NCBI GenBank assembly: GCA_965207735.1
Contig: OZ242296.1
Coordinates: 4,224,001 to 4,288,000 of the forward strand
Length of the DNA: 64,000 nt
Reading direction: 5' to 3'
From: Candidatus Versatilivorator sp.
GTDB lineage: Bacteria; Acidobacteriota; Terriglobia; Versatilivoradales; Versatilivoraceae
The position numbers were made by a program, and so were the translations under genes. The notes under the pieces were generated by a model that ran no database searches, was not told the origin of the DNA, and was given only the letters and a program-made list of their open reading frames with translations. This document shows positions 27,804 to 51,182 of the stretch, in pieces. The number at the start of each line of letters is the position of its first letter. Position 1 is the stretch's first letter.

Positions 27804-28126
27804 GTTGTCAGACAGGCTCGGGCAGCCGGGCACGATGGCTCTTGCTACCGACGGCCAGCGTCGGCAATGCAGCCGGGGTTGGATCGGATTTTTCGTTAGC
27901 CTTGAGCTGGTCCAGGTAATCGGCCCACAATTGCATCATCTCTCGCCTCTGCTGCAAATGAGCCGTGCGGTTGTAAGCCCGCCCAAGAGGATCTCGCACT
28001 ACATGTGCCAACTGGTGCTCAATGACGTCAGGACGAAAGCCCAGCACTTCATCGAGGTGGGTTCTTGCCATGGCCCGAAAGCCGTGCCCCGTCATTTCCT
28101 CCTTGCCAATGCCCATGCGCCTTAGG

Positions 28127-30055
28127 CCGAAGTTCCTGACCCACCGACAAGATAACTCCTTTATCTTCAATCATCAATCAGGAATCTCAGGTTGTCTTGC
28201 CTGGGAACATCCTGATGAGCTCGAAGGCCCTTTGCTGTAGCGGGGTCGGCTCGGTCAATCGCTGGACTCGCGGACCATCGGGTTCGGAGGGCAATCGGCA
28301 CTGGTGGCGGGCCCGCGTCGCCATCTGCGCCATCAACGTCTCCAGGCTCTGCAGCGGCAAGCCGTCCTCGGTGAGGCGTTTGCTCTTCTTCCGTTTGGCG
28401 GAGTCCGACGGCTGGGCCGCCAGCACCGGGTCTCGCCGTGCCCGTTCCGCTTCCAACTCCTCGTCATCGAACAGCAACGGAGCCAGGGCCAGCCGCAGAT
28501 GCCACTGAACGTAATAGGCCAGCAGGCACAGGAACAGATGAGCCCGCACCCGGCTCTCCACCCGATGACGGATGGGGCGGATGTGCAGGTCGACGGTCTT
28601 GAGGGAGCGGAAGGCCCGCTCCACCCGCGTCAGGTCCTTGTAGCGGCGCACCACCGCGGCTGTTGGCAGGCGATCGGCTGGCTCGCTGGTCCTCAGCATG
28701 TAGAACCCGTCCAGTTGCGCCTCCCGGATGATGGCGTCGGTGCGCCGTTCATAGTGGAAGGACCCGTCTGCGATCTGGGTCCGGAAGTGTTTGGCCACCT
28801 GGAAGCGGTTCTTGACCCGGCCGACTTTCTCGGCGATCTCGGTCGCCGACAAGGGCGTGCGGGTCCGTCTGGCCACCTGGCGGGCGATTCCGGCCAGCGC
28901 CTCCTCGGTGGCTGTCAGCAAAGCCTCCCGCTTCCGCCGCCGATGCTCGGCCAGCAGCGGGTTGTGGCAGACGATGAGCCTCTCGCCCGGATAGTCCGGG
29001 CTGCGGACTTCGGCCAGATGACGCTCGTCGAACAGGGAGAGCTGAACCGCCTCGCTCTCCACCAGACGGCGTATCTGGTGGTGGCGCAGGGCTGAGACCC
29101 ACCCCACTCCCGGATGACGCTTCAGATGGCTGATCTGCGTCTCGGTCAGCAGCCCGCGGTCCCCCACCAGCACCACCCGCTCCAGACCAAACCGACCCCG
29201 CACCTTCTCCACCTGATCCCCCACCGTGGTCGGATCCCCCGTGTTGCCGGCATAGGCCTGCACCGACAGCGGCCGCCCCATCTGGTCGGCCAGCACCCCG
29301 TAGACCACCATGGGCCGGTCCCGCCTGCCGTCCCGGTTGTGGCCGAACTGCATCAGCGAGCAGGTCTGGCCTTCGTAGTAACTGCTGCTGACGTCATAGA
29401 GCACCGCATCCCCTTCCGCCAGGTGCCGCTTGGCCAGCTTGCGCTCAATCCGGTCCTGACGCTCCAGCAACCAGTCCATGGCCTCATAGAGATCGTCCTC
29501 GTCGGTGTCCTCAAGGGACAGTTCCTCACCCAACGTGGTGGTGTGCCAAAGACGGGTGGTGGCCAGCTTGGAGGCCGGATAGAGCAGACGCTGCAGGATC
29601 ATGGCCAAGACCCGGTCCCGTTGGGGAGAGGGTCGGGAATCGATCAGCGCCGGCAGCTTCAGCTGCCGCACCACTTCCAGCAGCAACTCGACGTGGCCAT
29701 GAGGCAGGGAGCGTTCGATGGCGAAGAGTTGGTCGGGATGGACCAGGGGTTCGTTCTTGAGCACGCGCCGGAGGCGCTCGATCTTGTCCTTGGGCCAATG
29801 GGAGAGATTGGCCAGGGTGCGTTTATGGACCTTTTTACCCTCACGGCGGCCTTCGCGCAGGAGGATGGCAGGGGGAGAGTTGCGGTTGGGGACGGTTTCG
29901 ACGTACATGGGACTACGATATCACATACAACTATCATGTCAAGATAAATGCTAATCATATACATGGGAACAACACTCCACACGCCTCAATCCTCTTCCCC
30001 AAGAAAACAAATGGCTTAAGGCGATTTTTTGGGTGTAAAATGGGAGGAACTTCGG
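28127..30055 (-). mobile_element. IS1634-family insertion sequence
   Basis: Terminal IRs CCGAAGTTCCT/AGGAACTTCGG; 6-bp target duplication CTTAGG at 28121-28126 and 30056-30061. Confidence 0.93.
28187..29908 (-). CDS. IS1634-family DDE transposase
   Basis: MYVETVPNRNSPPAILLREG, LYDVSSSY, VGDRG, VERAFRSLK, IRHR. Confidence 0.93.
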   Translation of the reverse strand: MYVETVPNRNSPPAILLREGRREGKKVHKRTLANLSHWPKDKIERLRRVLKNEPLVHPDQLFAIERSLPHGHVELLLEVVRQLKLPALIDSRPSPQRDRVLAMILQRLLYPASKLATTRLWHTTTLGEELSLEDTDEDDLYEAMDWLLERQDRIERKLAKRHLAEGDAVLYDVSSSYYEGQTCSLMQFGHNRDGRRDRPMVVYGVLADQMGRPLSVQAYAGNTGDPTTVGDQVEKVRGRFGLERVVLVGDRGLLTETQISHLKRHPGVGWVSALRHHQIRRLVESEAVQLSLFDERHLAEVRSPDYPGERLIVCHNPLLAEHRRRKREALLTATEEALAGIARQVARRTRTPLSATEIAEKVGRVKNRFQVAKHFRTQIADGSFHYERRTDAIIREAQLDGFYMLRTSEPADRLPTAAVVRRYKDLTRVERAFRSLKTVDLHIRPIRHRVESRVRAHLFLCLLAYYVQWHLRLALAPLLFDDEELEAERARRDPVLAAQPSDSAKRKKSKRLTEDGLPLQSLETLMAQMATRARHQCRLPSEPDGPRVQRLTEPTPLQQRAFELIRMFPGKTT

Positions 30056-30468
30056 CTTAGGGCGGCCAGAACGGCATTCTCGCTCATGGGTCGGTCTCCT
30101 CTGGGAGTCCGACCGCTCGGAAAGACATAGCGTCCCTGTCCGGTCAACGGGTAGAGTTCGCGCAGAACCCCCACCGCCTGGCGGGAAAGGGGCACCAGAT
30201 GCTGGGAATCGGTCTTGATGACGGTGAAGCGCCATTCGGCCGTTTCCAGGTCGATATCGGACCATTCGGCTCGGCGGAGTTCGCCGGGCCGGACGAAAAC
30301 CAATGGGGTCAGTCTGAGGGCACAGCGCACAATCAGTGATCCCTCGTAGCCGTCCAGGACTCTCAGCAATGGGCCAATTTTCTTGGGATCGGTCAGGGCA
30401 GCGAAGTGCCCTCCCTTCACAGGTGGCAAGGCACCTCGCAAGACCTGGAGGCTACTGTAGATGTTTCG

Positions 30469-32270: not shown

Positions 32271-33371
32271 CTATTCGGATCGCCAGTCCGCGGCAAGCAG
32301 ACTGAGCGCCTTGGGCGCTCCTTCGCATTTTAAGACTGGGTAGGAACGAACCATACGGTTGAGGTTCATGTATGCGGTCGGGGATTCTGAAAACGTACCG
32401 TTCGTCTTTCTCACATAGATGGCATAGCGGATGCCATCCGTCAGGACAAGGCGACTGCACTTTTCGCGTCTGGAACTGCAAGCGTATTGAGTACCCTGGT
32501 TTTTGGACGATAGGCACGAATGGCCGAGTCTCTTAACCTCAACGACAGCTGCCAGGTTTTCATCAGTGCGCTGAAAACAGTCGAAATCCGTGAGTTGGAG
32601 CCTGTCGAAAAGCGCGATGTCGATTTTGTCCCATTCGACGGCCATTCGTTGTGGCGTCCAGCCCAATGTCCGCAGCAAGGGCACAACCAGGTACGCAACT
32701 GTTTCGGACTCCGAAGGATGTGTACCCCTACGTCGATACCATGAGGCGATCTGCTGGAGGCCACGCATGCTTTCGGCAAGTGCATTGATCGCGCCTGCCG
32801 CCGTTCCCTGGTCGAACAGATACTCGGCGAGCTCGCCTATGTCGATTTGCGGGATGGGTTCGTTAGGGCGGCACGACGACGGAAGTGCAGGTAACTCTGT
32901 ATCGCCCTCTGGTAGTTGCAATAGCCATTCGAACACCGGCCCTGTCCGGTATAACCTCTGTATCGTGTCACCCCATTTGAGCGTCCTCGTGCCAAACCTC
33001 TTAGGTTCGCCGTTCGCGGCCTTCCAGCACCACCTCACGCGACGGACGAGCTGAATGTCCCACCCGTCAATGTCGCCGAAGTCGTCGTACCATTTCACCG
33101 GGCCTTCTACCCGGCCGACTCCATAGACTTCGCTGGTGCCCAACCTTAGGACAACGATGTCGCCACCGTTGATGTCTTCGTGGTATTTGCGTATCATGCC
33201 AATCTTCTTTTGCGTCTCTTCGTCGTCGCGAAGAGGGGCCTCACAATCAGGCCACGGCCCTCGGGAGCCTGGGCCAAATAGAACGACCCCCCATTGCAGG
33301 CACAAATCCGCATACGACCGAACAGTGTCCCCAGCAGCTATTTGCCAAACCTCTTCATCGCCGACGTTCAT
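32271..33371 (-). CDS. EVE/PUA-like N-domain fused to an HsdR-N-type PD-(D/E)xK nuclease
   Basis: WQIAAG...GDIVVL...GVGRV...RRVRW; SESETVAYLVVPLLRTLGW, IDIALF, VEVK, QYA, LTDGIRY. Confidence 0.7.
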   Translation of the reverse strand: MNVGDEEVWQIAAGDTVRSYADLCLQWGVVLFGPGSRGPWPDCEAPLRDDEETQKKIGMIRKYHEDINGGDIVVLRLGTSEVYGVGRVEGPVKWYDDFGDIDGWDIQLVRRVRWCWKAANGEPKRFGTRTLKWGDTIQRLYRTGPVFEWLLQLPEGDTELPALPSSCRPNEPIPQIDIGELAEYLFDQGTAAGAINALAESMRGLQQIASWYRRRGTHPSESETVAYLVVPLLRTLGWTPQRMAVEWDKIDIALFDRLQLTDFDCFQRTDENLAAVVEVKRLGHSCLSSKNQGTQYACSSRREKCSRLVLTDGIRYAIYVRKTNGTFSESPTAYMNLNRMVRSYPVLKCEGAPKALSLLAADWRSE

Positions 33372-33557
33372 GAGACGTTTCCTTGTGAGCCTGTAGCCGT
33401 GGCGAAGCTGCGGAGGCCCCGCCATCGCTACAGCAGCTGACTTTCGCGGTTCTGGGTTAAGGCCTCGTCCATCATGCAATCTAGGCGGGTGACGCCGGCC
33501 CTGGTGCAGGGCCCCGGACTCACTGGTTAAGCCAATGCCCTCCTATGTGCGCCTTCT

Positions 33558-33995
33558 CTATGTGGCCAGGTCCTCGGCTGTGAGCTCGGTCGGTTCGACT
33601 AGGCGATAGTGTTTCTCGTCCAACACTTTGACCTCTCCCTTGATGAGTTCGAAAGCGAACAAAGCAATCACGTCATCGCTCATGAATTGTGCAGCTACCG
33701 GACGGCAAACAAGATCAGGATACTTCTCGTGGCACAATGCCATGTCTTGCTCGATTTGAACGATGTTCAATTCGTCTCGGCCGCCCTTTGCCTGAACGGG
33801 AATGACGTACTGGCAGCGTTTTGCGTCTACACCTACAAACAACTCGTCCGTTTCAACCTGTCCGATGCCTTTGACAGCGGAGCGAAGGTGATTTTGCAGC
33901 TAATAGCAAGTGATTCCGGTGAAGATGTCAATCAGCCGGTTGTACCGGACTTTTGACAGCAAAGCTTGCTCGTCTCCAAGCGCGTACTTGGCGAA
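33558..33995 (-). pseudogene. Decayed Type II-like restriction endonuclease
   Basis: YALGDEQALLSKVRYNRLIDIFTGITCY*LQNHLR...QVETDELFVG...PVQAKGG; internal TAG, no N-terminus. Confidence 0.7.
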
Positions 33996-37495: not shown

Positions 37496-37562
37496 GTCGC
37501 GAGGTGACCGTCGGCCCGTCGGCCTTGCGACGCGTTTCGGGCCGTACTCTGGCCGCTTGAAA

Positions 37563-37601
37563 ATGGTGCGCCTTATCTGTCCAAGAAATCAGGGGCGGTA
37601 C
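37563..37601 (+). mobile_element. IS3-family right-end remnant
   Basis: ...TGTCCAAGAAATCAGGGGCGGTACA; near-reverse-complement of 50735-50773. Confidence 0.6.
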
Positions 37602-37609
37602 AGAAGAGC

Positions 37610-38878: not shown

Positions 38879-38974
38879 TCTTTCGCACACCAACCAGAAC
38901 ATTTCGACTCACCAGTGCATCGCCGCTTTCCCAGTTAACCTCCGACTTGCGGATATCGCTGAAAATCAGGCTCA

Positions 38975-39140
38975 ACACGTTGCATCATCTTTCGCCGTCC
39001 CGGCAAGTGGGCCGTCCGGTTGTAAACCCCCTTATGATGAACCCGCGCAGCGTGAGCCAGCTGGTGTTCAATTAAGTCGGGTCGAAAACCCAACACTTCA
39101 TCCCGCAGGATCCTCGCCATGGCCCGAAAGCCGTGCATCC
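38975..39140 (-). pseudogene. IntA-type integrase C-terminal fragment
   Basis: HGFRAMAR..DEVLGFRPDLIEHQLAH...YNRTAHL, paralogous to 27808-28120. Confidence 0.85.
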
Positions 39141-39203
39141 TCATCCGATCCGGTTGTACGTCCATGCCTCAAATCCCTGGTAGCGTCAGACGTTAGGTCC
39201 CCA

Positions 39204-39341
39204 GTAACCGTTCGGTCAAGCCGTGGAGTCCATCCGCCGTCCGGAGGAGGCAAAGCGAGCAGAACCGACGGATCGCCTGTGATTGCAGGCACCTCCAACT
39301 TCGTCCGGGTCCAAGCCATCACGGCTTGACCGAACGGTTAC
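39204..39341. mobile_element. 138-bp MITE with IS66-like GTAA...TTAC ends
   Basis: Perfect 22-bp IR GTAACCGTTCGGTCAAGCCGTG (39204-39225/39320-39341); GGTCCCCA at 39196 and 39345. Confidence 0.65.
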
Positions 39342-39623
39342 CATGGTCCCCACAGCAAAACGGATTCCGAAACCACATTGATTGAGGGTGACCAATGGGG
39401 GGACCACTCGCTGCTTGACGGGACATAAATATAATCTAGTGAACACCTTAACTGAGTTCACCAGCAATCGGACCATCCCCTCAAATCACTGTCCAAAGAA
39501 ATCGTGGGGCGGCGGAGGCCGTCACAATGACCGTCGATCCAGCACCCTAAGCCAAATGGCCATGATGGTCCAAGGTGCGGGTTGCAAGCGGTTGCAGTAT
39601 TGGGATGTGGTGGGGTAGGAGAT

Positions 39624-39908: not shown

Positions 39909-40020
39909 TGTTGTTTTTCCTTATGTTGGACGGGTTGCGACCGTCCGGTGTGCTACCAGCCCGGGTTCGGGGCCGATCCTTATTGCTGGCGTTTCCTGAC
40001 CAGCGGTTCATCACTCCCTC

Positions 40021-40066
40021 GCCCCACGATTTCTTTGGACAGTGATTTGAGTGACTGTTTGAGAAG
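40021..40066 (-). repeat. 46-bp repeat, inverted partner of 50682-50727; partial third copy at 39481-39510
   Basis: 42/46 match to the reverse complement of 50682-50727. Confidence 0.85.
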
Positions 40067-40082
40067 ACACAGGAGAGAAGAA

Positions 40083-43000
40083 TCACGCTATGTCGATGTC
40101 CAGAGGAAGGCCCGACTCGCCCTTTTCCGCTTGGAAGGCGGTGGGCCAACCGCCGTGCAATTCAATGATTTCGTCGGCCTCGATCATCCGGCGGCGGGTT
40201 TCAGCTAACGCTGCAACGATTTTGCTGTAGTGTGCGACATCGTCCGCTGAGAGTCGGCGGCCTTTGCGGTCGTTCAACCACTTTTCCGCTGGGCGGTATC
40301 CCCCGATGGCAAAAGTGTATGTTTTCGGATCCACACCGTTGAAGTACTGAGCGCGGTTAATCCAGACGCGTCCCGGGCGACTGCCCTGCGGCGGTGTGTA
40401 GCGGACCCTTTCCACTTGGTTGCTGCCAGGAACGGGGGGACTCGCGCTAGCGTCCGTGCTCTCGATTTCCATCAAGTGAAGGCCGACGAGACGGGCTCCG
40501 AGTTGGCTGAGGTCCGCGAACAGGGCACGGTTGCCTGGCAACGGCACACGGGGATAATCCGACTTCAGGAAATCGGCATAGCGGCGGCGGTATTTAGGGC
40601 TGTGGAGGACGGCGTAGATGTAGTTCAAGACATCCTCTGGTCCAAACCCTTCCTCAAGGTTGCCGGGACCGTTGGATTGGAATCCTAGACCGACAGCGGA
40701 ACCGAACGCATTAACAAACTCCCTTTTAAGATTTACACGCCGCGCAACAATGGCTGAGGGCTTTAGGGTGTGCTTCAGGTAAAGATAGACAGGCAAAAGA
40801 CAATTGCCCCCACGTCGAAAGAGATTGAAATCCGAGCAAAGGCTTGAAACAAAAACAACGTCCCATGCGCTCGATCCAATAACTTGCCCGGCTCGCCCAA
40901 TGCATAACCCCAAATTCTCCCCCACCAGCATCTGCTGCATGACTTCCGGCCTAGGCCTACATATAAATCCACGGGACCTTCCGGTGTAATGAGTGAAGCG
41001 CTTGTCAAAGGGCCGGTAGAGAACGGGAACGACGCGCCCATCCGCGCGCAGCACATCTTCCTGTGCCAGACGAACTTTCCAATCACGAGCATCCTTCCCC
41101 AGCCCGTAAAACGACCGTGCGTCCTCGGTTTCTCGGTCTGCAAAGTCTGTCACGACTTGTTCCATTTCCTCACGGGTCCAGCATATCGCTAGTTTGTCAC
41201 GGGCGGTGACGATTCCCACTGAATTGATCGGGAAGATGTCAATAAGCGACCAACCAGCTTCGTACTCCTCATGCAGTGCCTCGTCCCGTGGAACGAACAG
41301 ACGTAGCGGCGGTTTGGAGAGCAGTTCCTTCCACTCCATGCTCCCTACATCGCCGGTGGCAAGCCTATCGTACTTGCCAGCGCCAGCAGTCTGTTCACGC
41401 ACACCCCAAAGGTTGGCGTGTTTGTATACGGGTCGGGTCGGTGAAGGGCCACTAGCAGCGGGGCACGCGAATAGGCCAACGGCCACCCCCTGCTGGATGT
41501 CGAAGACATTTTCGTCGTTACCTCCATCGGGCGCGCGTTCTTTCTTTTTCGCGTTGCCGTGCAGGTCGAGAAGGTACCCGACTGAAAGCGTGGCGATCAG
41601 GCTGTCGCGCATGCCACGGAAGGTCGGATTGTCTAAATAGCTATGGTTGGTGATGAAGCCGATCACACCGAGGCTCGTCCGTTCGATTTGCCAATGAGCA
41701 AGGCGAATGAACTTCACATAGTCATCGTTCAGCCACTTGGGGTTACGTTCATTTAGCGGGCTACCATCAACTTCGAAGTAGTTTTCAACTCGTCCCTCAC
41801 CCGCACTGCCACGCAGCAGGTCGCGAATCCATTCACCCTTGTTTGCAGAATGCCCCGAATAGGGCGGATTGCCGATAACGACCGTAAACCTCTGCCAATT
41901 CTTGACCTTGTTGACAGCGCGGGCCTCATGTGCAAGTGCCGGCAGAAAGTCCAGTGTCATCTGCTTGGAGCCCGCCGGTTCCAGGGCGTTCGTCAAAAAG
42001 ATACGCGCCCGCTCGTCGCTTTGGAAGCGATAACCGGTCCCGTAGAGCTTAAGGCCGACCTTGAGGTGTGCGATAGCGTAAGGGGCCATTAGAAGTTCGT
42101 AGCCGTGCAGGCGTGGCAGAAGGTGTCTGCGAACATACTCGTTCCACAGCGGTGCGATTTGGCTATCACGGAGACCGTGTGCTCGCCACCTCTTGAGGAG
42201 CGTTCCGTGGATTACGTCGATGGCCTCGATTAGGAAGGTGCCGGTACCCGCAGCCGGGTCGAGAATCTGGACGAAATCTTGGTTGGGTGACAGGCCATCG
42301 GGAATCTTTAGATTCTTGTGGCGCTCCGCCATCTCACCCCAGGTCGTGGTATCCGCCAAGCCATCAGCAAGTCCAAACTCCTTGCGAAGCAACTTGTCTA
42401 CCGACCGAACGATGTATGTAACCACCGGACGCGGGGTGTAGAAAACACCACGCTGCATGCGCTTCTCCGCGTCGTACTCCTTTAGGAACCATTCGTAGAA
42501 GTGAATGACTGGATCTTCCCGCGGGTTCCGGTCACCGAAATCGCGGATGACCGCCTCCATGTTGGCGTTGTCGAGCAAGTCAACAACCTCAGCAACGCCC
42601 AGTTCGTCGAAATCGATTCCAGAGTTGTAATTCTTGCTCTTAGTGCCGCCGATATGAAGGAACGCTTCCATCAGCTCGCGGAGAAACGGATTGGTGCGCA
42701 TGTGCCCGGCGAAGTCGTCGGCCGTCTTCTTCTGCGGGTCGGCAATGCGAGCTGAGAGCAGGCCGTAAGTGATAGTCTGGGCATACATGTCGGAGAAACT
42801 TTCGGAATCTAGGTCATGCAGTAGCGTCTGTTGGAACGCCTTCACGAGTCTTGTGACGGGCCCGTCTGCGGTTTCGATATCAAGTACGGCGCGAATTCGG
42901 TTGCGGATGGCGCGGGCCAACCTGGCTAAGCGCACAGACAGATCACGCGATGTAGTGACCACTTCCTGGTGGCGAAGGGTAAAGGCAGAACGCCACTGTT

Positions 43001-43604
43001 CGCGCCAAGAGTTGGCATTGTCCTCATCCTCGGGCCAAGCAAGGCTCTCTGTCAGTTCACGGGCTACGTGATCCAGGTGCAGCACGGTATCGCGGTCGTC
43101 CCAACCGAGCACCTTAAGGGTAGGCAGCTCTCGGCTTCCGGCAGGGGCGGCGAAGTGGGCGAAGCTAATCTGGCGAACCTCGCCCTCCCCGTAGTTCGAG
43201 ATGAACAGCAGGTCTTCCGCAGCCCAAGCTTGCCGCTCTGCACTGTTGGCGGACGCACGTTTCTTGAGCGCCACCCGCCCCAGGATGCTGCGCAACGCCA
43301 CCACGGGAAGGCGCTTTGGCTCAAACTTCACGAAGAAGACACCCCAGGGCTGGTTTGTTGCCAACGGGCGTAGGCGCTTGATTTCTTGAATTTTGGCTGC
43401 GTTTCTTACGTCTATGCCGAGTTCTTCCGGCGTGTACTCGAAGGTCAGTTCCTCGAAGTCCTCGCTGTCGATTGGCCAATACATCTCGTCGCGTAGAAAC
43501 ACGATCAACTGGTCGAACCGCTGGATGGCCGCAAGCTCGGTGCGGTGGTCGGTAGGCATGGGTTCAGTCTCCACTCCAAACGCGTTACGTCCTGCCATCA
43601 ACAC
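40083..43604 (-). CDS. N6-adenine MTase with Type ISP-like C-terminal TRD, no helicase (start possibly 43559)
   Basis: RGVFYTP, ILDPAAGTGTFL, IGNPPY, DENVFDIQQG, IGGYRPAEKWLNDRKGR. Confidence 0.9.
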   Translation of the reverse strand: MLMAGRNAFGVETEPMPTDHRTELAAIQRFDQLIVFLRDEMYWPIDSEDFEELTFEYTPEELGIDVRNAAKIQEIKRLRPLATNQPWGVFFVKFEPKRLPVVALRSILGRVALKKRASANSAERQAWAAEDLLFISNYGEGEVRQISFAHFAAPAGSRELPTLKVLGWDDRDTVLHLDHVARELTESLAWPEDEDNANSWREQWRSAFTLRHQEVVTTSRDLSVRLARLARAIRNRIRAVLDIETADGPVTRLVKAFQQTLLHDLDSESFSDMYAQTITYGLLSARIADPQKKTADDFAGHMRTNPFLRELMEAFLHIGGTKSKNYNSGIDFDELGVAEVVDLLDNANMEAVIRDFGDRNPREDPVIHFYEWFLKEYDAEKRMQRGVFYTPRPVVTYIVRSVDKLLRKEFGLADGLADTTTWGEMAERHKNLKIPDGLSPNQDFVQILDPAAGTGTFLIEAIDVIHGTLLKRWRAHGLRDSQIAPLWNEYVRRHLLPRLHGYELLMAPYAIAHLKVGLKLYGTGYRFQSDERARIFLTNALEPAGSKQMTLDFLPALAHEARAVNKVKNWQRFTVVIGNPPYSGHSANKGEWIRDLLRGSAGEGRVENYFEVDGSPLNERNPKWLNDDYVKFIRLAHWQIERTSLGVIGFITNHSYLDNPTFRGMRDSLIATLSVGYLLDLHGNAKKKERAPDGGNDENVFDIQQGVAVGLFACPAASGPSPTRPVYKHANLWGVREQTAGAGKYDRLATGDVGSMEWKELLSKPPLRLFVPRDEALHEEYEAGWSLIDIFPINSVGIVTARDKLAICWTREEMEQVVTDFADRETEDARSFYGLGKDARDWKVRLAQEDVLRADGRVVPVLYRPFDKRFTHYTGRSRGFICRPRPEVMQQMLVGENLGLCIGRAGQVIGSSAWDVVFVSSLCSDFNLFRRGGNCLLPVYLYLKHTLKPSAIVARRVNLKREFVNAFGSAVGLGFQSNGPGNLEEGFGPEDVLNYIYAVLHSPKYRRRYADFLKSDYPRVPLPGNRALFADLSQLGARLVGLHLMEIESTDASASPPVPGSNQVERVRYTPPQGSRPGRVWINRAQYFNGVDPKTYTFAIGGYRPAEKWLNDRKGRRLSADDVAHYSKIVAALAETRRRMIEADEIIELHGGWPTAFQAEKGESGLPLDIDIA

Positions 43605-43668
43605 TTAGACTGCCGCCACGTTGCAGGGCAATCTAAGCCCGAGGAATAGACAAATTCTGAATAGACGC

Positions 43669-44916
43669 TTAAAACAAATCCCTCAAATCGTCTTCGGACT
43701 CACTTCCGGATCCGCCGGAAGGTGGTTCCGTAGACTGGGGTAAATCGCCTCGCGTGATTGTCAACTGCCGCTCTTGTTTAAGTTTTTTGAAACGCTCAAT
43801 AAACGCGCACTGGCCGCTGGCACTGAAATATACCCACCGGGTAGCGCGGGTAATGCCGACAAACAGCCATCGCTCCAGCCGGTTCACGTGCAGAAATTTC
43901 GGGAACTTGTTCCTCCTCAACAGGGGCATCAATACCGTGTCAAAAGTCAATCCTTTGGCGCTCGGATACGCCATGACCTTTGGGCGCGAAGTGCTGAAGT
44001 CAATGGTTGGTGATGGGTTCGCCTTCACTCTTCCCGGTTGGGATGGAACCTCAACCTCCAAGCCGACTTCTTTCAGAGCATTGGCATAGCCATAGACGTG
44101 CCTTTTCGTTGGAAACAGGATGGCCACCCGGTCACCTTTGTCGATGCAGGTGCGAACCATCTCGATCATGTGGTGGCGTTCGTCCTCAAAGCTTTGGGCG
44201 ATGTACAGCAGCGGGCTTTGCCGCTCGCCTTTTTCGATTGGTGGATTTTGTGCGATGAAGGCTTGGCGTTCCGACTCGTCACGAATAAAAGCTGCCGCTA
44301 CGCGTACGATGTAGGGTGAGCAGCGATAGGCGTCGAGCAGCGTCAGGTTGCGTTTGTGTAATCCCAAGGTGGCCAGGACACTCGCCTCATCAACACCTTT
44401 TTCGTAGACTTGCTGCTTGTGATCCATGAAGACCGTGACATGCTTCGCCACGGCTTTGAGGATTTCGTATGCTCGAGTGTCGAGGTCCTGTCCTTCGTCG
44501 ATCATCGCAAAATCGTAGAGTCGGGTGGAGTGCTTCAGAGAGCGTACCTTTTCCCATACTGCTTGGCGGATTGCCTCGAAATCAGGGCCTTGTTTCGCCC
44601 GGGGAAGCCTTCTATCAATCCACGCTTCATGGAATCTTCGACACCAATCGTCGAAGGTAAGGACGCAGTCATCGGGGAGTCTGAGATCCTTGAGAGCTGT
44701 ACGGATATATGCCTTCAGGGTCTTGGTGAACACAAAAATCCGGTATCGTTCCGGCGGGACACGAAATTCATCAACTAGGTGCCTCGACCGGTGCAACAGG
44801 ACTATGGTCTTCCCGGATCCTGGCGAACCAAGCACCAGGCGATGTGCTCTTGGGTGCATCACGACCGCACGGACTTGCTCGACGGTCAGTTCATTGCGGG
44901 GGATGAGCCAACTCAT
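43669..44916 (-). CDS. Compact SF1 (UvrD-like) helicase
   Basis: GSPGSGKT, IDEGQD, DHKQQVY, YRCS, SAKGLTFD, FVGITRA; ATGA overlap with the Hsp70 gene. Confidence 0.88.
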   Translation of the reverse strand: MSWLIPRNELTVEQVRAVVMHPRAHRLVLGSPGSGKTIVLLHRSRHLVDEFRVPPERYRIFVFTKTLKAYIRTALKDLRLPDDCVLTFDDWCRRFHEAWIDRRLPRAKQGPDFEAIRQAVWEKVRSLKHSTRLYDFAMIDEGQDLDTRAYEILKAVAKHVTVFMDHKQQVYEKGVDEASVLATLGLHKRNLTLLDAYRCSPYIVRVAAAFIRDESERQAFIAQNPPIEKGERQSPLLYIAQSFEDERHHMIEMVRTCIDKGDRVAILFPTKRHVYGYANALKEVGLEVEVPSQPGRVKANPSPTIDFSTSRPKVMAYPSAKGLTFDTVLMPLLRRNKFPKFLHVNRLERWLFVGITRATRWVYFSASGQCAFIERFKKLKQERQLTITRGDLPQSTEPPSGGSGSESEDDLRDLF

Positions 44917-47312
44917 TGTCGCCTTACGATTTCAGCTCTGGTATCTGGCAAGTCACCGCTGGCAGAGATGGCCGAAGTCTTCTCCCGGCGCGAACGTTCC
45001 TCATTGGCCTCCTGCTCTCGTTCGCCGTCACGGGCAAGCCTGGCACCGGTCAGATACCAAACCAGTTCAAAGTCACTCAAAGTTGCCAGAGGCTCAAACA
45101 TACCGAAAGCTTTGTCAAGCAGGCTGTCGCGCAGTAATGGTTGCTTCAGCTTCTCAGCCAAAGTCGCTTTGAGAACCCAACAAGGTGGATCGGGATCGAT
45201 GGAGATGGCCTCGTCAATTACCCGTATTGCTTCATCCAACTTGCCCTGACCTCGCTTCGACAATGCAAGGTTGAAAAACGAACCGTTCCAGCGGCGCCAA
45301 ATGAGGGAGGCCTCTCGGTAAAATTTCTCTTCACGTTCGTAATCCCCCACCTCGCCACAGATGATGCCCATGCGGTGGAGAATTCCGCCATCCGGCCTGG
45401 GGCTGTTCAAACGGCTCAATAGATACAGCGCCCTTTCGTACCTACCCAGGTCTGCTTCCAGCAGGGCAATCTGCTTTACGGTTTCCCGTTGTTGCTGTCC
45501 TGTCATCTCTTGCTCTGTGCGCATTTGCTCTTCCAACTCGAGAATCCGGTTGCGCTGAGCGTTTGGATTCACCACGTTCGTCAAGGGGTTTGCGATCTCA
45601 CCATGAAACTCCCCCCGATCAAGATCATTCATCAGGGCAAGACGGAGATGGAGCACTTGGTTGCCGTCCATGCGGTAACGCAGTCTCAGTGGATCACCCT
45701 TGGAGACGATCGGTGGGATTTCCCAGAGCCGTTCCATCAGGACATTCTTGTGAGAATCTTGTAACTCCACACGAAGCTCCACCGTCTCGGTCAGGCCGGT
45801 TTTCGGAACGAACAGGTCGTTTTTCTGCGCCCAATCCTTGTTGGATGGATACGGAAGTTCGGTTCCAGATCTAATCAACTCCACTGCGCCACCTGAAGTC
45901 TGGATGTTGATGCTGTCGCTCGTGACAGGGCAGAAGATGCCCTGTTTGTACAGGGCCAGCGACAACGCCTGCCAAGCCGCACCTTGGGCGACGGCGGTCT
46001 GAGTCTGCTCCAAGTCATAGAAGCGCAAGAACCGTGCTTTTCTGAAGAAGCCCTCAACGGTCTCCCTAACCTGTGGGATGAGGCTGCTCCCGCCAACCAT
46101 CAGACAAAGGTCGACGTCGTGTGGTTCCAGCCTTGCGCGTTCCAACGCATCTTGCAATGGGGCAAAAATCGAACAGGTCCGAAAGTAGTCGGTCTCTCGG
46201 GGGTAGGGGAGATCTTTGTCGAAGAAGGGTTCCAGAACCTTCTCAAGCTGGACCGCGCTCAACGTGGGCGATTGCAGCCGTAGCGTACGATCTGGCAGAG
46301 AGCAGGAATAAAAATTAGGGATTTTCCGAATCAGGTTAGCACGTTCCTTATCGTAGAGATCAGATTTTTTTAGGCGGGTAATCTCTTGGCACAGGCCGAT
46401 CTTCAAGGATTCGGCAGCACCAAGCAGCGCAGGCATCACCCAGTTGGATTTCTGGCCGTAGTCCAAATCTCGGGCGTTCGATCCATTTTGCTCGATCAAT
46501 TGGGGAAGCAGCACCTCGGCGACAATTGCCCGGTCAATGTCGCCGCCGCCAAGTCTGAGGTAGCGGGAAACGGTAAGGGGTGCGATTCTAACCGGACGCC
46601 CGGGTTTTGCGGGCAGCAGTTGAAAGAGGGCAACGTCGCAGGTGCCGCCGCCAAAATCGAAAACCACAAACCGCTGAGGCGATGAGACCTCCGCAAAAGC
46701 TCGTTTGCCGTGAGCAACGAGGTAGGCGATGAAAGCGGCAATGGGCTCGTCCACCAAGCCGCCCTCAAGCAACTCAACGCCGGCGAGCGCCGCCGCCTGC
46801 ACAGTGTCCTGCCTCTGGGCAGCCTGGAAAGAGGCGGGCGTGGTGACCACCGTTGTTGTCACCGGTGTGGGGTCCTCGGTGAGTGCTGCGTCCATAAGGA
46901 ATTTCAGCAGGCATCCGCCGATCGTCTTGGCGGAATTAAGGCCGTCCGGTGCCTTATGGTAAGTCCGGCGGACGCCAATGTCGTTCTTGCACTCCCAGAA
47001 GATGTTTCGGTTCTGCTCCAGGTCACTGTCACGCAGGCGGGTGCGCAGCCTCTTCGCCCCCTCCCCAACAAGCCGTTTGCCGTCGTGTAGCGCCACCACC
47101 GACGGTACCAACGTGTGGATATAAGGGCCTTGCTGCGTGTCTTGTTCGACTTCGAGGCAACGGACCTCCGGCAGATTCGTGCCGCCGGGTTGCATGAGGA
47201 TTTCAGCGATGGCCGAATTGGTTGTGCCTAGGTCGATGCCGACGACCCGTACGGGCTCGTTCGGTGCTCGAACCCTGACATTTTCTGGTGTGACCAGTGC
47301 AAGAGTGTTCAT
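44913..47312 (-). CDS. Atypical Hsp70/DnaK-family ATPase with C-terminal TPR repeats
   Basis: GIDLGTTNS, TPASF, DEPIAA, FDFGGGTCDV, LGGGDID, VGGSSLIP, AVAQGAA; TPR-like helices at the C-terminus. Confidence 0.9.
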   Translation of the reverse strand: MNTLALVTPENVRVRAPNEPVRVVGIDLGTTNSAIAEILMQPGGTNLPEVRCLEVEQDTQQGPYIHTLVPSVVALHDGKRLVGEGAKRLRTRLRDSDLEQNRNIFWECKNDIGVRRTYHKAPDGLNSAKTIGGCLLKFLMDAALTEDPTPVTTTVVTTPASFQAAQRQDTVQAAALAGVELLEGGLVDEPIAAFIAYLVAHGKRAFAEVSSPQRFVVFDFGGGTCDVALFQLLPAKPGRPVRIAPLTVSRYLRLGGGDIDRAIVAEVLLPQLIEQNGSNARDLDYGQKSNWVMPALLGAAESLKIGLCQEITRLKKSDLYDKERANLIRKIPNFYSCSLPDRTLRLQSPTLSAVQLEKVLEPFFDKDLPYPRETDYFRTCSIFAPLQDALERARLEPHDVDLCLMVGGSSLIPQVRETVEGFFRKARFLRFYDLEQTQTAVAQGAAWQALSLALYKQGIFCPVTSDSINIQTSGGAVELIRSGTELPYPSNKDWAQKNDLFVPKTGLTETVELRVELQDSHKNVLMERLWEIPPIVSKGDPLRLRYRMDGNQVLHLRLALMNDLDRGEFHGEIANPLTNVVNPNAQRNRILELEEQMRTEQEMTGQQQRETVKQIALLEADLGRYERALYLLSRLNSPRPDGGILHRMGIICGEVGDYEREEKFYREASLIWRRWNGSFFNLALSKRGQGKLDEAIRVIDEAISIDPDPPCWVLKATLAEKLKQPLLRDSLLDKAFGMFEPLATLSDFELVWYLTGARLARDGEREQEANEERSRREKTSAISASGDLPDTRAEIVRRQ

Positions 47313-47347
47313 GCTCCTGTCCCTGAATTAGTGATTGAGAACTCCGC

Positions 47348-50300
47348 TCAGCCGTTCAGTTCCATCCAACACTTCAGTGACGGCTTTATTCCTACCGGGG
47401 CATCGACCCGCCTGAGATAGGTGTTCTTGATATGTCGTTGGACCTTGGTTCGCGTTTCGATGAGAGTTTTCTCTTCCATAGCGCATTTGCGAGGGATCTT
47501 ATGCTTGGAGCGAATGCTTGCGACGATCTCTCCCGGCTCCTCGACGATTACGTTTCGATCAAGATCGTAGAGGTACCATCGTGTGGACCCTGCCTCCTCG
47601 CTAAAGGTACCGGTTTCTTTGTCGAGGGCTGGTAGCGCATAGCAGAAGAACACACCGCGCGCGCCTTTGGACAATCGCTCACGACCACTGAAAGTAGCGC
47701 CGGGCAGGCGATTGAGACGCGTTTCCAGATCAGGATCATCCCGCTGCAAGGCTTGGTATTCGAGATGCATGTTTTCAATCTCGGTACGCGTCCCCTCATA
47801 GGCGTGGTTGAATTCCCTAAGGGCATCGAAGTTGTCCTTGGGCGTGAGAAGCTTCCTGCCTTCGATTCCAAACGTCTTTGAGATTCGGAGGGTCTTCTGG
47901 GTAACCCTGGTGTAGAGTGTGAGGATGGCGTTCAGCTCTTCAGGAGGCAGAAAGTTCCAATAACTCACACTGCCACGAGAGGCGGCGACCTCCGGGTGTT
48001 CTGCGATCAGACGTTTTTCGACCTCCAGGTTCATGCGGCGGTCAACCCGTCCTATGCGCTGCATTAGCCGCACCGGGTTCCAGTGGATGTCGTAGTTGAT
48101 CATGCGAGAGGCGTCCTGAAGGTTCAGTCCTTCCGAAAGAACATCGGTTGAGATCAGAACGCGAATTTTCTTTAGGCCAGATTCTGCAAGCTCAGTCGAG
48201 GAGGACCCATTGTAGAACGGTGAAAATTGCTGGATTACCTCAGCTCGGTTGGCTTTGGTTGCACTGTCCAGTTGGGCTACTCCGTCGATTCCGCCATGGT
48301 CGAGTTGGCGTTTGAGATAACGAGCCGTGTCGGCGAACTCAGTGAAGATGAGCACCTTCTGGTCGTCCAATTCCTTGGTCTTGAGCAACCGGATGAGCTT
48401 TTGAAGCTTGTCGTCCTGCTTGGGCTTAAACCTCCGAGCCTCGCCGAGAAATTGAACGATCTGGTCAAGATCCAGATAGGTCTCCAATATCATCTCTTCG
48501 ACGTTGTACTGGTCACGGTCGAGCCGCTCGACGGCGTCGAGCATTTCCGGTGGCACGATGTCTTCGTCTTCGGGTTCGTCGTCATCCCCGCCCCAAAGGT
48601 CGAGTTGGCGTTGCTTTGTGTACCCCAAAATCTCTGCGTTTTGCGTCTCCCACCGAGTGTGTAGTCTTTTTTCGCCATCAGTCACGCTATGGACCTTAAT
48701 GAAGGCAAGCAGCTTTTTCAGGAGCCGGTTGCAGGATAGCTCGAAGGCCACGACGGAACTCTCGAAGCGCTTGAGAAAATTGGTCCGGATCAGACCCACA
48801 ACCTGCTGCTGCCGGTTCTGTTCGAAAGCGTCTATTTCTTCGTCTGGACCCTTGTACCAGTGAAGTGGATAGTACATGGGAAGCGTGAAGAGTGGATTCT
48901 CACGCTGGAACGCCTTCTGGAAGAGTTGCAGCAGCCGACCATAGGTCTTATGGATTGAGTAGGCAGCAACCTTTGGAGCTTTGCGTTCCGGAAAGGCGGC
49001 GGCCTGGCCAGTCTCGCGGATCTGGCTCTCGCGGGCGTAGGCGCGGCTACGCTGGACCACAAGTTGTCGAAAGATCGCGTCTGTCGAAAGTGTCTCATGA
49101 GCTTCGCTCATTTGCTCGGTAACGTCAGTCACGGTGTGCCCTATGCGCTGACGAAATGCCTGTTCCATCTGATTGACGTGGGCACGCAGGTTGTTGACAC
49201 CGAGGGTCCGGGCAAAATAGGCTTGGTCCCGCCGGGTGAATAGTTCAACCATGTGGCGGAAGTCGCTCAGCCGGTTGTTGATTGGGGTTGCGGTGAGCAT
49301 GAACAGGGTCTTGCGCCGCACCGAGTTGTCGAGAAGATCGTATAGGCGGTAATAGCGGGAGGGCTCCCTTCCGTTATCGCTACCGCGTGAGCCCGGATTC
49401 CTGAAGTGGTGGGCTTCGTCAATGATCACAACGTCGGCCAATTCGGCAATTCGCTGGAACCGAGCCGGGAAATCGCCCTTCCTGGATAAATCAGTATGAC
49501 TGAAGACGGCTAGGTTGCTGAAATCGGCGCGGCTCCCGACACCGCCGATGTGAGGCAGCCATTCCTTCAAGTGGGGTTCCCAAACTCCTTCTTTCGCAGC
49601 CTTGGGTGCAAACAGCGCTACTCGCCTGCCTTCGTGGAGCACCAAACGCTCTATGAGCATGAGCCCGACGAAGGTCTTGCCAAGACCCACGCCGTCGCAG
49701 AGGAATGCGCCACCGTGCTGACGAGCGATCTTCATGAGCCCCCAATACGCTTCCTGTTGGTAGCGGTCGAGGTGGTGGAACATTCTGGATTTCGTTTCAT
49801 CCCATTCAGTTGCGGTCAGTTCGTGGCCACGAAAGAACTCCTGCAGGGCCTTCGCGTACACTTCAAAGGGTGAATGAAGACGGATGTGCCGTTCGACCGT
49901 CTCTATGACGGCGTCGGTAACTTCTTTGGCTTCTTTCCAATGGGCCTCGAACCACTCTTGAAGTTGGGATACCTCACGAGCGCTTTGGATTTGCACGTTG
50001 AGCTCGATGTTCTCCGTGAGTCCCGGTTTGGTGAAGTTGCTGGAACCTACCAACGCCTGTGAACCGACGACCGCAAGCTTGGCATGGGTTATGGAGGTCT
50101 TCGCATGAAACTTGCCCTTGTCGTAGATCCGGCACTCGATTTGACCCCGCCGCAGACCCTCGAGAACAGCAGGGACGCCGTGCAAGAAGGGGTTGTCTTG
50201 CTTGTCGTACTCAATGCTCTGGTTAAGAATTTCTACAGCCCGCGAACGCACCGAGTCGAGTAGCGCCCTGCGTGTGCGGTGAGTTGTTTCAGCTCCCATT

Positions 50301-50491
50301 AGCACTCGGATCTTCTCAAGGCCTTGCCACTTTCCGTCCAATGCGAGCAATGAACCGATCTCGAAGAATCCCGTTGCCACGTCGAATGCTCTGGCGATAT
50401 CGGCCCACTCTTCGAGGTACCGTAGTCCGGTCCATCCGGAAATGCTGTTGTCAACGATGAACAGACTACGCCCTGCGGAGTTAGCATTCAT
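47348..50491 (-). CDS. PLD-nuclease + SNF2-family helicase
   Basis: ATGFF, FHAK, GSSNFT...ENIELN; DGVGLGKT, DEAHHFRN, LTATP, SEGLNLQ, WNPVRLMQRIGRVDR. Confidence 0.92.
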   Translation of the reverse strand: MNANSAGRSLFIVDNSISGWTGLRYLEEWADIARAFDVATGFFEIGSLLALDGKWQGLEKIRVLMGAETTHRTRRALLDSVRSRAVEILNQSIEYDKQDNPFLHGVPAVLEGLRRGQIECRIYDKGKFHAKTSITHAKLAVVGSQALVGSSNFTKPGLTENIELNVQIQSAREVSQLQEWFEAHWKEAKEVTDAVIETVERHIRLHSPFEVYAKALQEFFRGHELTATEWDETKSRMFHHLDRYQQEAYWGLMKIARQHGGAFLCDGVGLGKTFVGLMLIERLVLHEGRRVALFAPKAAKEGVWEPHLKEWLPHIGGVGSRADFSNLAVFSHTDLSRKGDFPARFQRIAELADVVIIDEAHHFRNPGSRGSDNGREPSRYYRLYDLLDNSVRRKTLFMLTATPINNRLSDFRHMVELFTRRDQAYFARTLGVNNLRAHVNQMEQAFRQRIGHTVTDVTEQMSEAHETLSTDAIFRQLVVQRSRAYARESQIRETGQAAAFPERKAPKVAAYSIHKTYGRLLQLFQKAFQRENPLFTLPMYYPLHWYKGPDEEIDAFEQNRQQQVVGLIRTNFLKRFESSVVAFELSCNRLLKKLLAFIKVHSVTDGEKRLHTRWETQNAEILGYTKQRQLDLWGGDDDEPEDEDIVPPEMLDAVERLDRDQYNVEEMILETYLDLDQIVQFLGEARRFKPKQDDKLQKLIRLLKTKELDDQKVLIFTEFADTARYLKRQLDHGGIDGVAQLDSATKANRAEVIQQFSPFYNGSSSTELAESGLKKIRVLISTDVLSEGLNLQDASRMINYDIHWNPVRLMQRIGRVDRRMNLEVEKRLIAEHPEVAASRGSVSYWNFLPPEELNAILTLYTRVTQKTLRISKTFGIEGRKLLTPKDNFDALREFNHAYEGTRTEIENMHLEYQALQRDDPDLETRLNRLPGATFSGRERLSKGARGVFFCYALPALDKETGTFSEEAGSTRWYLYDLDRNVIVEEPGEIVASIRSKHKIPRKCAMEEKTLIETRTKVQRHIKNTYLRRVDAPVGIKPSLKCWMELNG

Positions 50492-50681
50492 ACGATCCTC
50501 TCGGTTCCGTCCCACGCAGCAGCTCCAACATCATCGTCAGCTTCGCCGGGCCGACCACCGTCCCTTCCTCCTACCCATGGACTTAAGGGCCGCCTCGACG
50601 CCCGTTGGGCGACCGGAGGTGCTCCTGAGGCTCCATTCCTTCTCTTGGACATGGACCAAGCGTGATCCTTCTCCCCTGTAG

Positions 50682-50727
50682 CTTCTCATACAGTCACTCG
50701 AATCACTGTCCAAAGAAACCGAGGGGC
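50682..50727 (+). repeat. 46-bp repeat, inverted partner of 40021-40066
   Basis: cttctcatacagtcactcgaatcactgtccaaagaaaccgaggggc. Confidence 0.85.
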
Positions 50728-50734
50728 GGGGGAC

Positions 50735-50870
50735 TGTACTGCCCCTGATATCGTGGACAGATAAGACGCACCATACTCAAGCGGTTAGTTTCAGCGCAAG
50801 GCGTTGTCTTGCCTGAACCGGAGGCTTTAATCCCAGCCGCTCAATCAGCCAGTGGTGGCTGTTAAGCGCG
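50735..50870 (-). mobile_element. IS3-family right-end remnant with transposase tail
   Basis: End TGTACTGCCCCTGATATCGTGGACAG; minus-strand tail NSHHWLIERLGLKPPVQAR...*. Confidence 0.65.
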
Positions 50871-51182
50871 CAAGAATCTTCCAAAGCGATCCATCCCGTT
50901 GCGAATCCAATAGACGGCGGATCGCCTGCAGCGACAGAGGCTCTGTCATGACGACCGCACTCCCGGCCCGTTGCCCCACACCGGTCGCTCCGCTCCCTCC
51001 GTGGGGCAACGCTCGGACCCTGACACATTCGGTTCCCAAAACCCTTGCAGTTTTCGATGCCCATTGACATCAGCAGATCGTCGATTCGGCAAAGACCAAG
51101 GTATACAATCCAGATCAGGAACAAGAAAGCTGGGGTGCCGATCCTGGCCAGCAAACCGGCTTGGCTTAGAGCCTGATGACAT

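Follow-up and report, generated by a model that had tools for sequence, protein, structure and literature searches.

A mobile Hsp70-TPR/mini-helicase gene pair, probably defensive, within a restriction-like operon of Candidatus Versatilivorator

A 64,000-nt stretch of DNA from Candidatus Versatilivorator sp. (assembly GCA_965207735.1, contig OZ242296.1, forward-strand positions 4,224,001-4,288,000; hereafter the window) carries, at window positions 40083-50515, a block of four genes encoding a PLD-SNF2 nuclease-motor, an Hsp70 with TPR-like C-terminal helices (Hsp70-TPR), a small UvrD/Rep-type helicase and an N6-adenine methyltransferase. We are confident that this block is a composite of two independent gene pairs, bounded by insertion sequence (IS) ends. 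The best explanation of the whole, to which we give an even chance of being right, is a restriction pair into which a stand-alone defence pair, working as sensor, switch and effector, has been inserted. Defence is the likeliest role of this inner pair, the cassette, and comparative sequence analysis makes it a probable one. An earlier reading of the same DNA, the original prediction, had offered either a four-part methylation-based system or a two-gene module nested in a pair resembling restriction-modification (RM) genes. It is the second that stands, because both pairs assort independently and the Hsp70 and helicase genes remain linked in 63 of 69 loci.

Two gene pairs that assort independently

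All four open reading frames (ORFs) are uninterrupted and lie on the minus strand, and their spacing is as originally described, with 35 bp between PLD-SNF2 (47348-50515, likely ATG at 50491) and Hsp70-TPR (44913-47312, 799 aa), an ATGA overlap between Hsp70-TPR and the helicase (43669-44916, 415 aa), and 64 bp (from a GTG start) or 109 bp (from the likely ATG at 43559) before the methyltransferase (40083-43604). Single-protein scans against PADLOC-DB 2.0.0 gave partial matches for three of the four proteins: PLD-SNF2 (C3a139 HKD+Snf2, E 2.5e-54), the helicase (best matches GajB, E 1.2e-23, and C3a187 NERD+UvrD, E 2.7e-17) and the methyltransferase (Type IIG restriction endonuclease-methyltransferase, REase_MTase_IIG, E 1.7e-212). 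No PADLOC model matches the Hsp70-TPR, and in these scans the prospect that the operon would coincide with an existing model was not borne out. Every NCBIfam match on the block proteins falls far below its cut-off.

The Hsp70-TPR and helicase genes are tightly coupled and co-evolving. An alignment of 78 Hsp70-TPR sequences was scanned against GTDB genomes, and the best 80 of 387 stretches, drawn from 16 named phyla, were taken as loci. Among the 69 loci with at least 300 bp of room (11 short loci were left out), the helicase lies directly downstream of Hsp70-TPR in 63, two of these helicases being truncated, and the gap between the genes is -4 to +24 bp in all 62 loci where it could be measured. 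Of the six exceptions, four form a clade, one has a truncated Hsp70 and one is a lone locus. Seen from the helicase side, the gene occurs in seven of 300 genomes of the host's phylum, with Hsp70-TPR directly upstream in six (two of the seven loci duplicate loci of the Hsp70-side set). A mirror-tree comparison of Hsp70 and helicase distances gave r 0.85 over 58 pairs, using FastTree trees that carried long-branch warnings.

Viral contigs returned nothing for a single Hsp70 query or for the helicase alignment; with the Hsp70 alignment as query they returned four loci, two of which are full-length family members. One stretch of a viral contig collection (L002 9929-13521) holds a distant Hsp70-TPR/helicase pair at 25-26% identity, with a different tail, beside Type I RM and AlbA genes. 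Plasmids gave no match at E 1e-40. In one helicase-less locus an HD-domain gene (L077 12394-12960) overlaps the Hsp70-TPR stop by 4 bp and is a possible replacement partner.

The outer genes form a pair of their own. A metagenome scan for PLD-SNF2 yielded 73 loci at 68-80% identity, of 303 relatives; the methyltransferase follows in 55 of the 62 loci with at least 600 bp of room, with a gap no larger than 17 bp in 47 of them. None of the 73 loci contains Hsp70-TPR, and 23 of them extend at least 2.5 kb past the methyltransferase. Eight loci have a gap of 0.4-1.2 kb between PLD-SNF2 and methyltransferase (six were inspected), and the three inserted ORFs scanned at this junction encode YhcG, KilA-N and Fic, which marks the junction as a cargo slot. 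PLD-SNF2 (Pfam PLDc_2, SNF2 and Helicase_C), the presumed restriction subunit, has the PLD motif HxKxxxxH, not HxKxxxxD, in all 74 homologues in which the motif could be matched (77 loci scanned). The methyltransferase has the motifs NPPY and DPAAGTGTF, a Pfam N6_Mtase match and a Type ISP-like target-recognition domain (TRD; Type_ISP_C, PF18135, E 5e-81); inspection by eye of five aligned methyltransferase N-termini revealed no PD-(D/E)xK motif. The outer pair likely restricts unmethylated DNA.

The same SNF2/methyltransferase clade stands beside Hsp70-TPR in four of the 80 loci (L006, L009, L024 and L029). The order there is SNF2-methyltransferase-Hsp70(-helicase) in three and convergent in one, never with the cassette between SNF2 and methyltransferase, and the label is unclustered on the Hsp70 tree (4 changes over 5 rows, as low in 146 of 500 shuffles). 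Among 13 congeners one has the cassette. In the congener G009 SNF2 and methyltransferase are adjacent, the cassette is absent and no helicase gene was found. The congener G013 has the nested four-gene order at about 85% DNA identity and at a different site; there Hsp70 is interrupted by an IS, a further gene of 474 aa is present, the methyltransferase bears an S24 domain and DRT1 comes next. The cassette is broken beside intact outer genes in three cases, G013 and the two loci with truncated helicases (L009 and L029).

Two further features of these congeners merit record. The 474-aa orphan gene of G013 (L171 9577-11001), between helicase and methyltransferase, has no Pfam or PADLOC match. Furthermore, a PLD-SNF2/methyltransferase pair with a C-terminal S24 peptidase domain on the methyltransferase and DRT1 directly after it occurs in both G013 (L171 1660-9332) and G009 (L173 11864-19051).

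Insertion sequence ends and movement of the block

The block is bracketed by a 99-bp inverted repeat whose arms are 84% complementary, a feature absent from the original prediction. On the left, an IS3-family left-end copy that points into the block (40012-40110, plus strand) overlaps the last 28 nt of the methyltransferase gene; the C-terminus is cut by this end, past a complete core. An extension of 180-220 aa is present on 15 of 31 methyltransferase homologues, and the other 16 end about as early as the block's enzyme. On the right, a left end with a decayed orfA start (50504-50738, minus strand; 74% over 237 nt to the element in G009) lies directly upstream of PLD-SNF2, where it may supply a promoter, and a right-end remnant (50734-50883, minus strand; 81% over 150 nt to the right end of the G009 element) abuts it to form a right-end/left-end junction. 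Promoter and terminator scans gave results at chance level.

The 99-bp repeat is the left end of an IS3-type element, of which G009 has an intact copy carrying HTH_Tnp_1, HTH_21 and rve ORFs. The host has 11 copies of the repeat, which is also present in all five congeners searched; no intact copy of the element turned up in the host. Inspection of the IS ends by eye revealed no target-site duplication that would speak for clean transposition. The stretch 40020-50734 recurs at roughly 90-95% identity in two contigs of another study (run X3), where different DNA adjoins it on either side; the composite therefore likely moves as a unit in this lineage. The GC content of the block is 54-57%, against 61.9% for the genome. 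Further IS3-type end fragments and a perfect 22-bp inverted repeat lie at 39480-39517, 37551-37603 and 39204-39341.

An Hsp70 with TPR helices in place of its lid

Kept nucleotide-binding motifs and TPR-like C-terminal helices had been noted in the Hsp70 from the start, and both are seen in its sequence motifs, in Pfam matches (HSP70 and TPR) and in an AlphaFold2 (AF2) model (pLDDT 87.7). The model comprises a nucleotide-binding domain (NBD) at residues 21-455, a beta domain at 461-574 that aligns to the beta part of the DnaK substrate-binding domain (SBD), and TPR-like helices at 585-779 that replace the helical lid. Residues D27, T30, T31, K109, E189, D219, T224 and D226 are invariant in all 78 aligned homologues. 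With residues 330-799 as query we found 491 homologues, and a look-up in the ESM Atlas returned generic TPR clusters and two unnamed Hsp70-TPR clusters.

The protein is not a housekeeping chaperone of the DnaK or HscA families, judging by its scores (113-119 bits, against cut-offs of 620-823), its exchange of lid for TPR helices and its altered DnaJ-contact residues. The ordinary host DnaK, encoded about 3.1 Mb from the block, has the sequence R-I-V-N-E-P-T, in which we take R, N and T to be contacts for DnaJ. The Hsp70-TPR family has G/A/D-L-x-D-E-P-I/V at this site, so that the putative DnaJ-contact positions are replaced. Consistent with the earlier report of no dnaJ or grpE nearby, neither was among the 21 ORFs scanned around the block. 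Within the TPR helices N681 is kept in 78 of 78 homologues and N646 in 56 of 78; the two lie one repeat apart, the spacing found in peptide-binding TPRs. Elsewhere in the family, one protein match (P0045) has a Ser/Thr kinase domain fused N-terminally to Hsp70-TPR, and a separate kinase gene lies upstream in L045.

A minimal helicase with a conserved acidic tail

The helicase (Pfam UvrD-helicase and UvrD_C) is modelled by AF2 (pLDDT 87.5) as a two-RecA core with a disordered tail of pLDDT below 50, and has no nuclease domain. In fold it is closest to Rep (Z 28.2), HelD (Z 26.6) and SLFN11 (Z 26.4); of the top whole-core matches SLFN11 has the lowest root-mean-square deviation (2.9 A over 292 residues). 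Its sequence matches in the PDB are PcrA, UvrD, Rep and HelD. All 61 sequences compared share K36, D140, E141, Q168, R198 and R357. For the nucleic-acid path we compared positions whose contact roles in PcrA we take as given. H93 is changed to D, W259 is lost, R359 is changed to P and the equivalent of E571 is also changed, whereas the single-stranded DNA contacts F/Y64, T65, T91 and Y257 are retained. Together with the invariant ATP residues, these changed and kept positions point to an ATPase that is intact and has an altered single-strand path. A stronger claim, that nucleic-acid binding had been lost, was downgraded when a wider census found the equivalents of T563 and H565 mostly retained (71 and 64 of 104 rows).

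The protein ends in an acidic D-L-x-D-L-F tail, in which a variable linker precedes conserved last residues. Aspartate stands at position -3 in 101 of 120 sequences, DLF is kept in 64 and the last residue is hydrophobic in 113; a hydrophobic end was also found in 88 of 103 distant representatives. One family member (P0324) carries the tudor domain of PcrA/UvrD before its tail, which hints at RNA polymerase contact in some members.

Natural fusions of the two proteins bear on what this tail may do. In a search of 1.84 billion representative proteins, P0273 and P0293 emerged as chains in which the Hsp70 NBD extends to about residue 465 and passes directly into the helicase, without SBD, TPR or acidic tail. 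In both, the Hsp70 ATP motifs are degraded and the helicase ATP motifs are kept. The joint loss of the TPR half and the tail suggests that these two tether the pair; the simplest reading is that tail and SBD/TPR form a tether that the covalent link replaces, and that the helicase would be the working end. We consider such a tail tether somewhat better than an even prospect. A search for longer helicase fusions, itself a weak one, returned P0273 only.

Defence genes around the pair

Of 376 neighbour ORFs of at least 200 aa, 249 were scanned against Pfam along with 12 extras, and the families found include Type I, IIG, III, MmeI, EcoRV/Dam, GmrSD, McrBC, BREX, DUF499/DUF1156, Dnd, Hachiman and CRISPR. 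With 56 neighbour proteins as defence queries and matches scored leave-one-out, a restriction or defence match was present in 16 of the 36 loci of at least 20 kb (30 of all 80 loci), or in 21 of the 36 when a locus's own queries were counted. The same queries matched 657 of 19,808 random 22.4-kb windows of the host genome (3.3%). The nearest defence genes are co-oriented with the pair in 35 of 38 cases, 26 of these 35 within 1.5 kb; McrBC is near the pair in one of the 80 loci. Scoring the neighbours of Hsp70-TPR homologues, the check proposed alongside the original prediction, upholds both the linkage of Hsp70 to the helicase and that of the pair to defence islands.

Surroundings of the block

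The block sits in a decayed island. Integrase remnants at 27808-30441 and 38935-39165 are split around a DDE transposase (573 aa), and a C-terminal fragment of a Type II restriction endonuclease lies at 33558-33842. A 402-aa ORF at 32271-33479 has no family match and by eye resembles a restriction-fold nuclease. No tRNA genes were found in the 64-kb window.

A model for the cassette and its alternatives

We propose that the helicase tail would dock in the TPR/SBD half of the Hsp70-TPR, holding the helicase beside the Hsp70 ATPase domain. A phage protein or peptide bound by the TPR/SBD half could then flip the nucleotide state of the Hsp70 without DnaJ, whereupon the helicase-like ATPase would be released or switched on. 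Since the helicase has no nuclease, it would most likely stall infection through runaway ATP turnover or by clamping single-stranded nucleic acid. That the helicase is the output is a claim we place slightly below an even chance. More tentatively, the cassette may represent a new class of bacterial immune module, a DnaJ-independent Hsp70 that serves as an NLR-like receptor, in which the TPR replaces the lid and holds the helicase by an acidic tail resembling EEVD or that of SSB, Hsp70 allostery links the sensing of a phage protein to a nuclease-free motor, and the whole plugs into many unrelated restriction operons and travels here as a defence cassette bounded by IS ends. From its cargo slot between the restriction genes the cassette would give a second line of defence without needing the outer genes.

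Several observations weigh against this model or soften its support. The defence queries were picked after the Pfam results from these same loci, the control is a single genome and related loci are not independent; 15 of the 36 long loci have no detected defence neighbour, and the cassette contains no effector domain of known toxicity. The nested four-gene order recurs in G013 and run X3 and is thus stable within the lineage. The mirror-tree correlation partly reflects shared transfer. Five loci have an intact Hsp70-TPR with N646 and N681 kept and no helicase beside it, and no helicase was found elsewhere in their metagenome-assembled genomes, the completeness of which is not stated; the Hsp70-TPR can therefore survive by itself, which is hard to square with a helicase that is the sole output. 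The idea of a full TPR carboxylate clamp was downgraded, as the third putative clamp residue, K/R715, varies in distant loci. Finally, the two fusions, known as protein sequences alone, share 42% identity over their length and group as sisters on the NBD tree (99 support), and so represent one old event, not two.

Among the alternatives, the one that survives best is that the cassette is a plug-in helper or guard for modification and restriction systems. In this view the helicase would stand in for DnaJ and bring the Hsp70 to complexes on DNA, so as to load a methyltransferase, strip DNA-mimic inhibitors or sense RM inhibition in the manner of PrrC, which does so from within a Type I RM operon. 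The nearest defence genes are mostly of RM type (Type I, IIG/Eco57I, III, MmeI, BREX, DUF499/DUF1156 and Dnd), 18 of the 38 are co-oriented within 1.5 kb upstream, and the replaced DnaJ-contact positions would fit such a role. RM genes are, however, the commonest defence genes in any case. The partners switch freely on the tree (the Eco57I label has 7 changes over 9 rows, as low in 240 of 500 shuffles), the 15 long loci noted above stand alone, and the fused form has dispensed with the substrate-binding domain that a chaperone needs. An ATPase that assists methyltransferase loading has a precedent in MANTIS, as far as the accessible part of that report describes it (10.64898/2026.09.23.753747). 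Overall we regard a helper or guard role as unlikely.

Less likely still is a reversal of polarity, in which the helicase would sense single-stranded or forked nucleic acid, as SLFN11 does, and the Hsp70-TPR would be the effector, grabbing an essential host or phage protein. The close fit of the helicase core to SLFN11 speaks for this, as do the PcrA contact positions that are kept (F/Y64, T65, T91 and Y257, with T563 and H565 in most distant members) and the five loci with intact Hsp70-TPR and no helicase. The fusion lineage argues the opposite, as it drops SBD and TPR and degrades the Hsp70 ATP motifs but keeps those of the helicase.

We find it more doubtful again that the pair is a non-defensive machine for stress, proteostasis or rescue of transcription and replication, a HelD-like motor with a private chaperone carried as island cargo. 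In several loci the pair has housekeeping genes around it, HelD ranks among the top structural matches, and there is neither a nuclease nor a PADLOC match to the Hsp70. Nonetheless, restriction and defence neighbours exceed the host background about 13-fold, and the pair is patchily and horizontally distributed and repeatedly broken. Lastly, an obligate four-part methylation-based system is very improbable despite the nested order shared by G013 and the run X3 contigs and the same SNF2/methyltransferase clade beside the cassette in four loci, given that Hsp70 occurs in 0 of 73 SNF2 loci, that the gene order differs in all four GTDB cases, that the clade label is unclustered on the Hsp70 tree, and that the cassette is broken in G013, L009 and L029.

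Implications

If the pair defends its host, the immune switch would be an active Hsp70, the textbook folding chaperone, not a STAND ATPase, a GTPase or a cyclic-nucleotide circuit. A tether of TPR helices and acidic tail, if true, would be a bacterial arrangement akin to the eukaryotic Hsp70-EEVD/TPR code with the roles swapped. The locus also illustrates how a defence operon is assembled, with a cargo slot in an RM-like pair, IS ends that capture the composite, cargo that decays and RM genes that stay; the four genes together do not merit a catalogue entry as one system. Furthermore, the natural fusion, the six-residue tail and the invariant ATP residues offer sharp mutants, which makes the proposed reading directly testable.

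Comparison with known systems

The nearest analogue of the cassette is CnuD/CnuH of CoCoNuT type III. As the accessible part of PMC11090510 describes them, CnuD and CnuH likewise place a separate Hsp70-like NBD/SBD protein with C-terminal helical repeats beside a superfamily 1 helicase in restriction-linked operons; the type has McrB and McrC homologues and nuclease effectors, the ATP motifs of CnuD are degenerate, and CnuH, a UPF1-like helicase, is large and contains helical insertions. A separate-gene Hsp70 NBD/SBD followed by helical repeats is also what the AF2 model and Pfam give here, a likeness to CnuD in architecture. In contrast, the block has four large ORFs only, with neither a McrB-like CnuB nor a McrC-like CnuC (the McrBC genes of the host are at 1.62 Mb), the ATP residues of the Hsp70-TPR are kept in 78 of 78 homologues, and the helicase is of the UvrD/Rep type, has 415 aa and an acidic tail, and lacks a nuclease.

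For the block as a whole, MANTIS/Gao_RL/BR type 2 offers four genes with an adenine methyltransferase, a PLD superfamily 2 helicase-nuclease and a further ATPase, according to the accessible parts of 10.64898/2026.09.23.753747 and PMC12839542. The former describes in MANTIS a DUF499 AAA+ ATPase, DUF3780 and a methyltransferase of its own. The domain order of PLD fused to SNF2 is shared, with an SNF2 score of 133.8 bits against the NF042964 cut-off of 1100. DUF499, DUF3780 and DUF1156 have no Pfam match on the four block proteins (a DUF499/DUF1156 locus of the host lies at 1.87 Mb), and the block methyltransferase has a Type ISP-like TRD. MANTIS is the best model, by analogy, for how the outer pair would cut.

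Type ISP RM enzymes combine nuclease, superfamily 2 helicase, methyltransferase and TRD in one chain. The block methyltransferase resembles these and Type IIG enzymes in its N6 methyltransferase, Type_ISP_C TRD and PADLOC REase_MTase_IIG match, but its chain is without a helicase domain, and another gene encodes the motor and PLD nuclease. DISARM class 1 is defined by a YprA/DrmA helicase with DUF1998. It and ARMADA type II share with the block an SNF2 helicase, a large adenine methyltransferase and a UvrD-family helicase in one operon; in or beside the block, however, there is no YprA/DrmA-DrmB ORF, and the DrmD score is 132 against a cut-off of 610. Gabija places the OLD-family nuclease GajA beside GajB. 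GajB and C3a187 are likewise short superfamily 1 ATPases in defence; unlike them, the block has no GajA match on its four proteins and no NERD domain, and the partner of the helicase is Hsp70-TPR (six of the seven helicase-anchored loci). ARMADA type II has a YprA-type helicase core and an ArmD with an N-terminal RelE domain, and the main text of PMC12458937, as far as accessible, has 0 occurrences of 'Hsp70'; the block helicase differs from ArmD in having no RelE domain. The core of BREX is PglZ and BrxC (accessible part of PMC12839542), both absent from the block, where PglX matches only at E 0.0008.

Two-gene nuclease-protease pairs are described in the accessible part of PMC12799240 as having been gained repeatedly by unrelated defence operons, the same logic of an acquired two-gene module with entirely different proteins. 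The available portion of a preprint on ParA (10.64898/2026.10.19.760177) states that HSP70-like NTPases can replace STAND switches in tripartite systems. One supplement of PMC13069673, in its accessible part, holds no Hsp70 match, and no title or abstract start among the papers found by full-text searches describes an Hsp70-TPR/helicase pair, although subscription papers, bioRxiv supplements and two papers cited by the ParA preprint may hold such a description. CnuD/CnuH for the cassette and MtsD of MANTIS for the nuclease-motor are the nearest analogues, but the block belongs to neither system, and the Hsp70-TPR/mini-helicase pair is an unnamed mobile module that falls outside every family tested.

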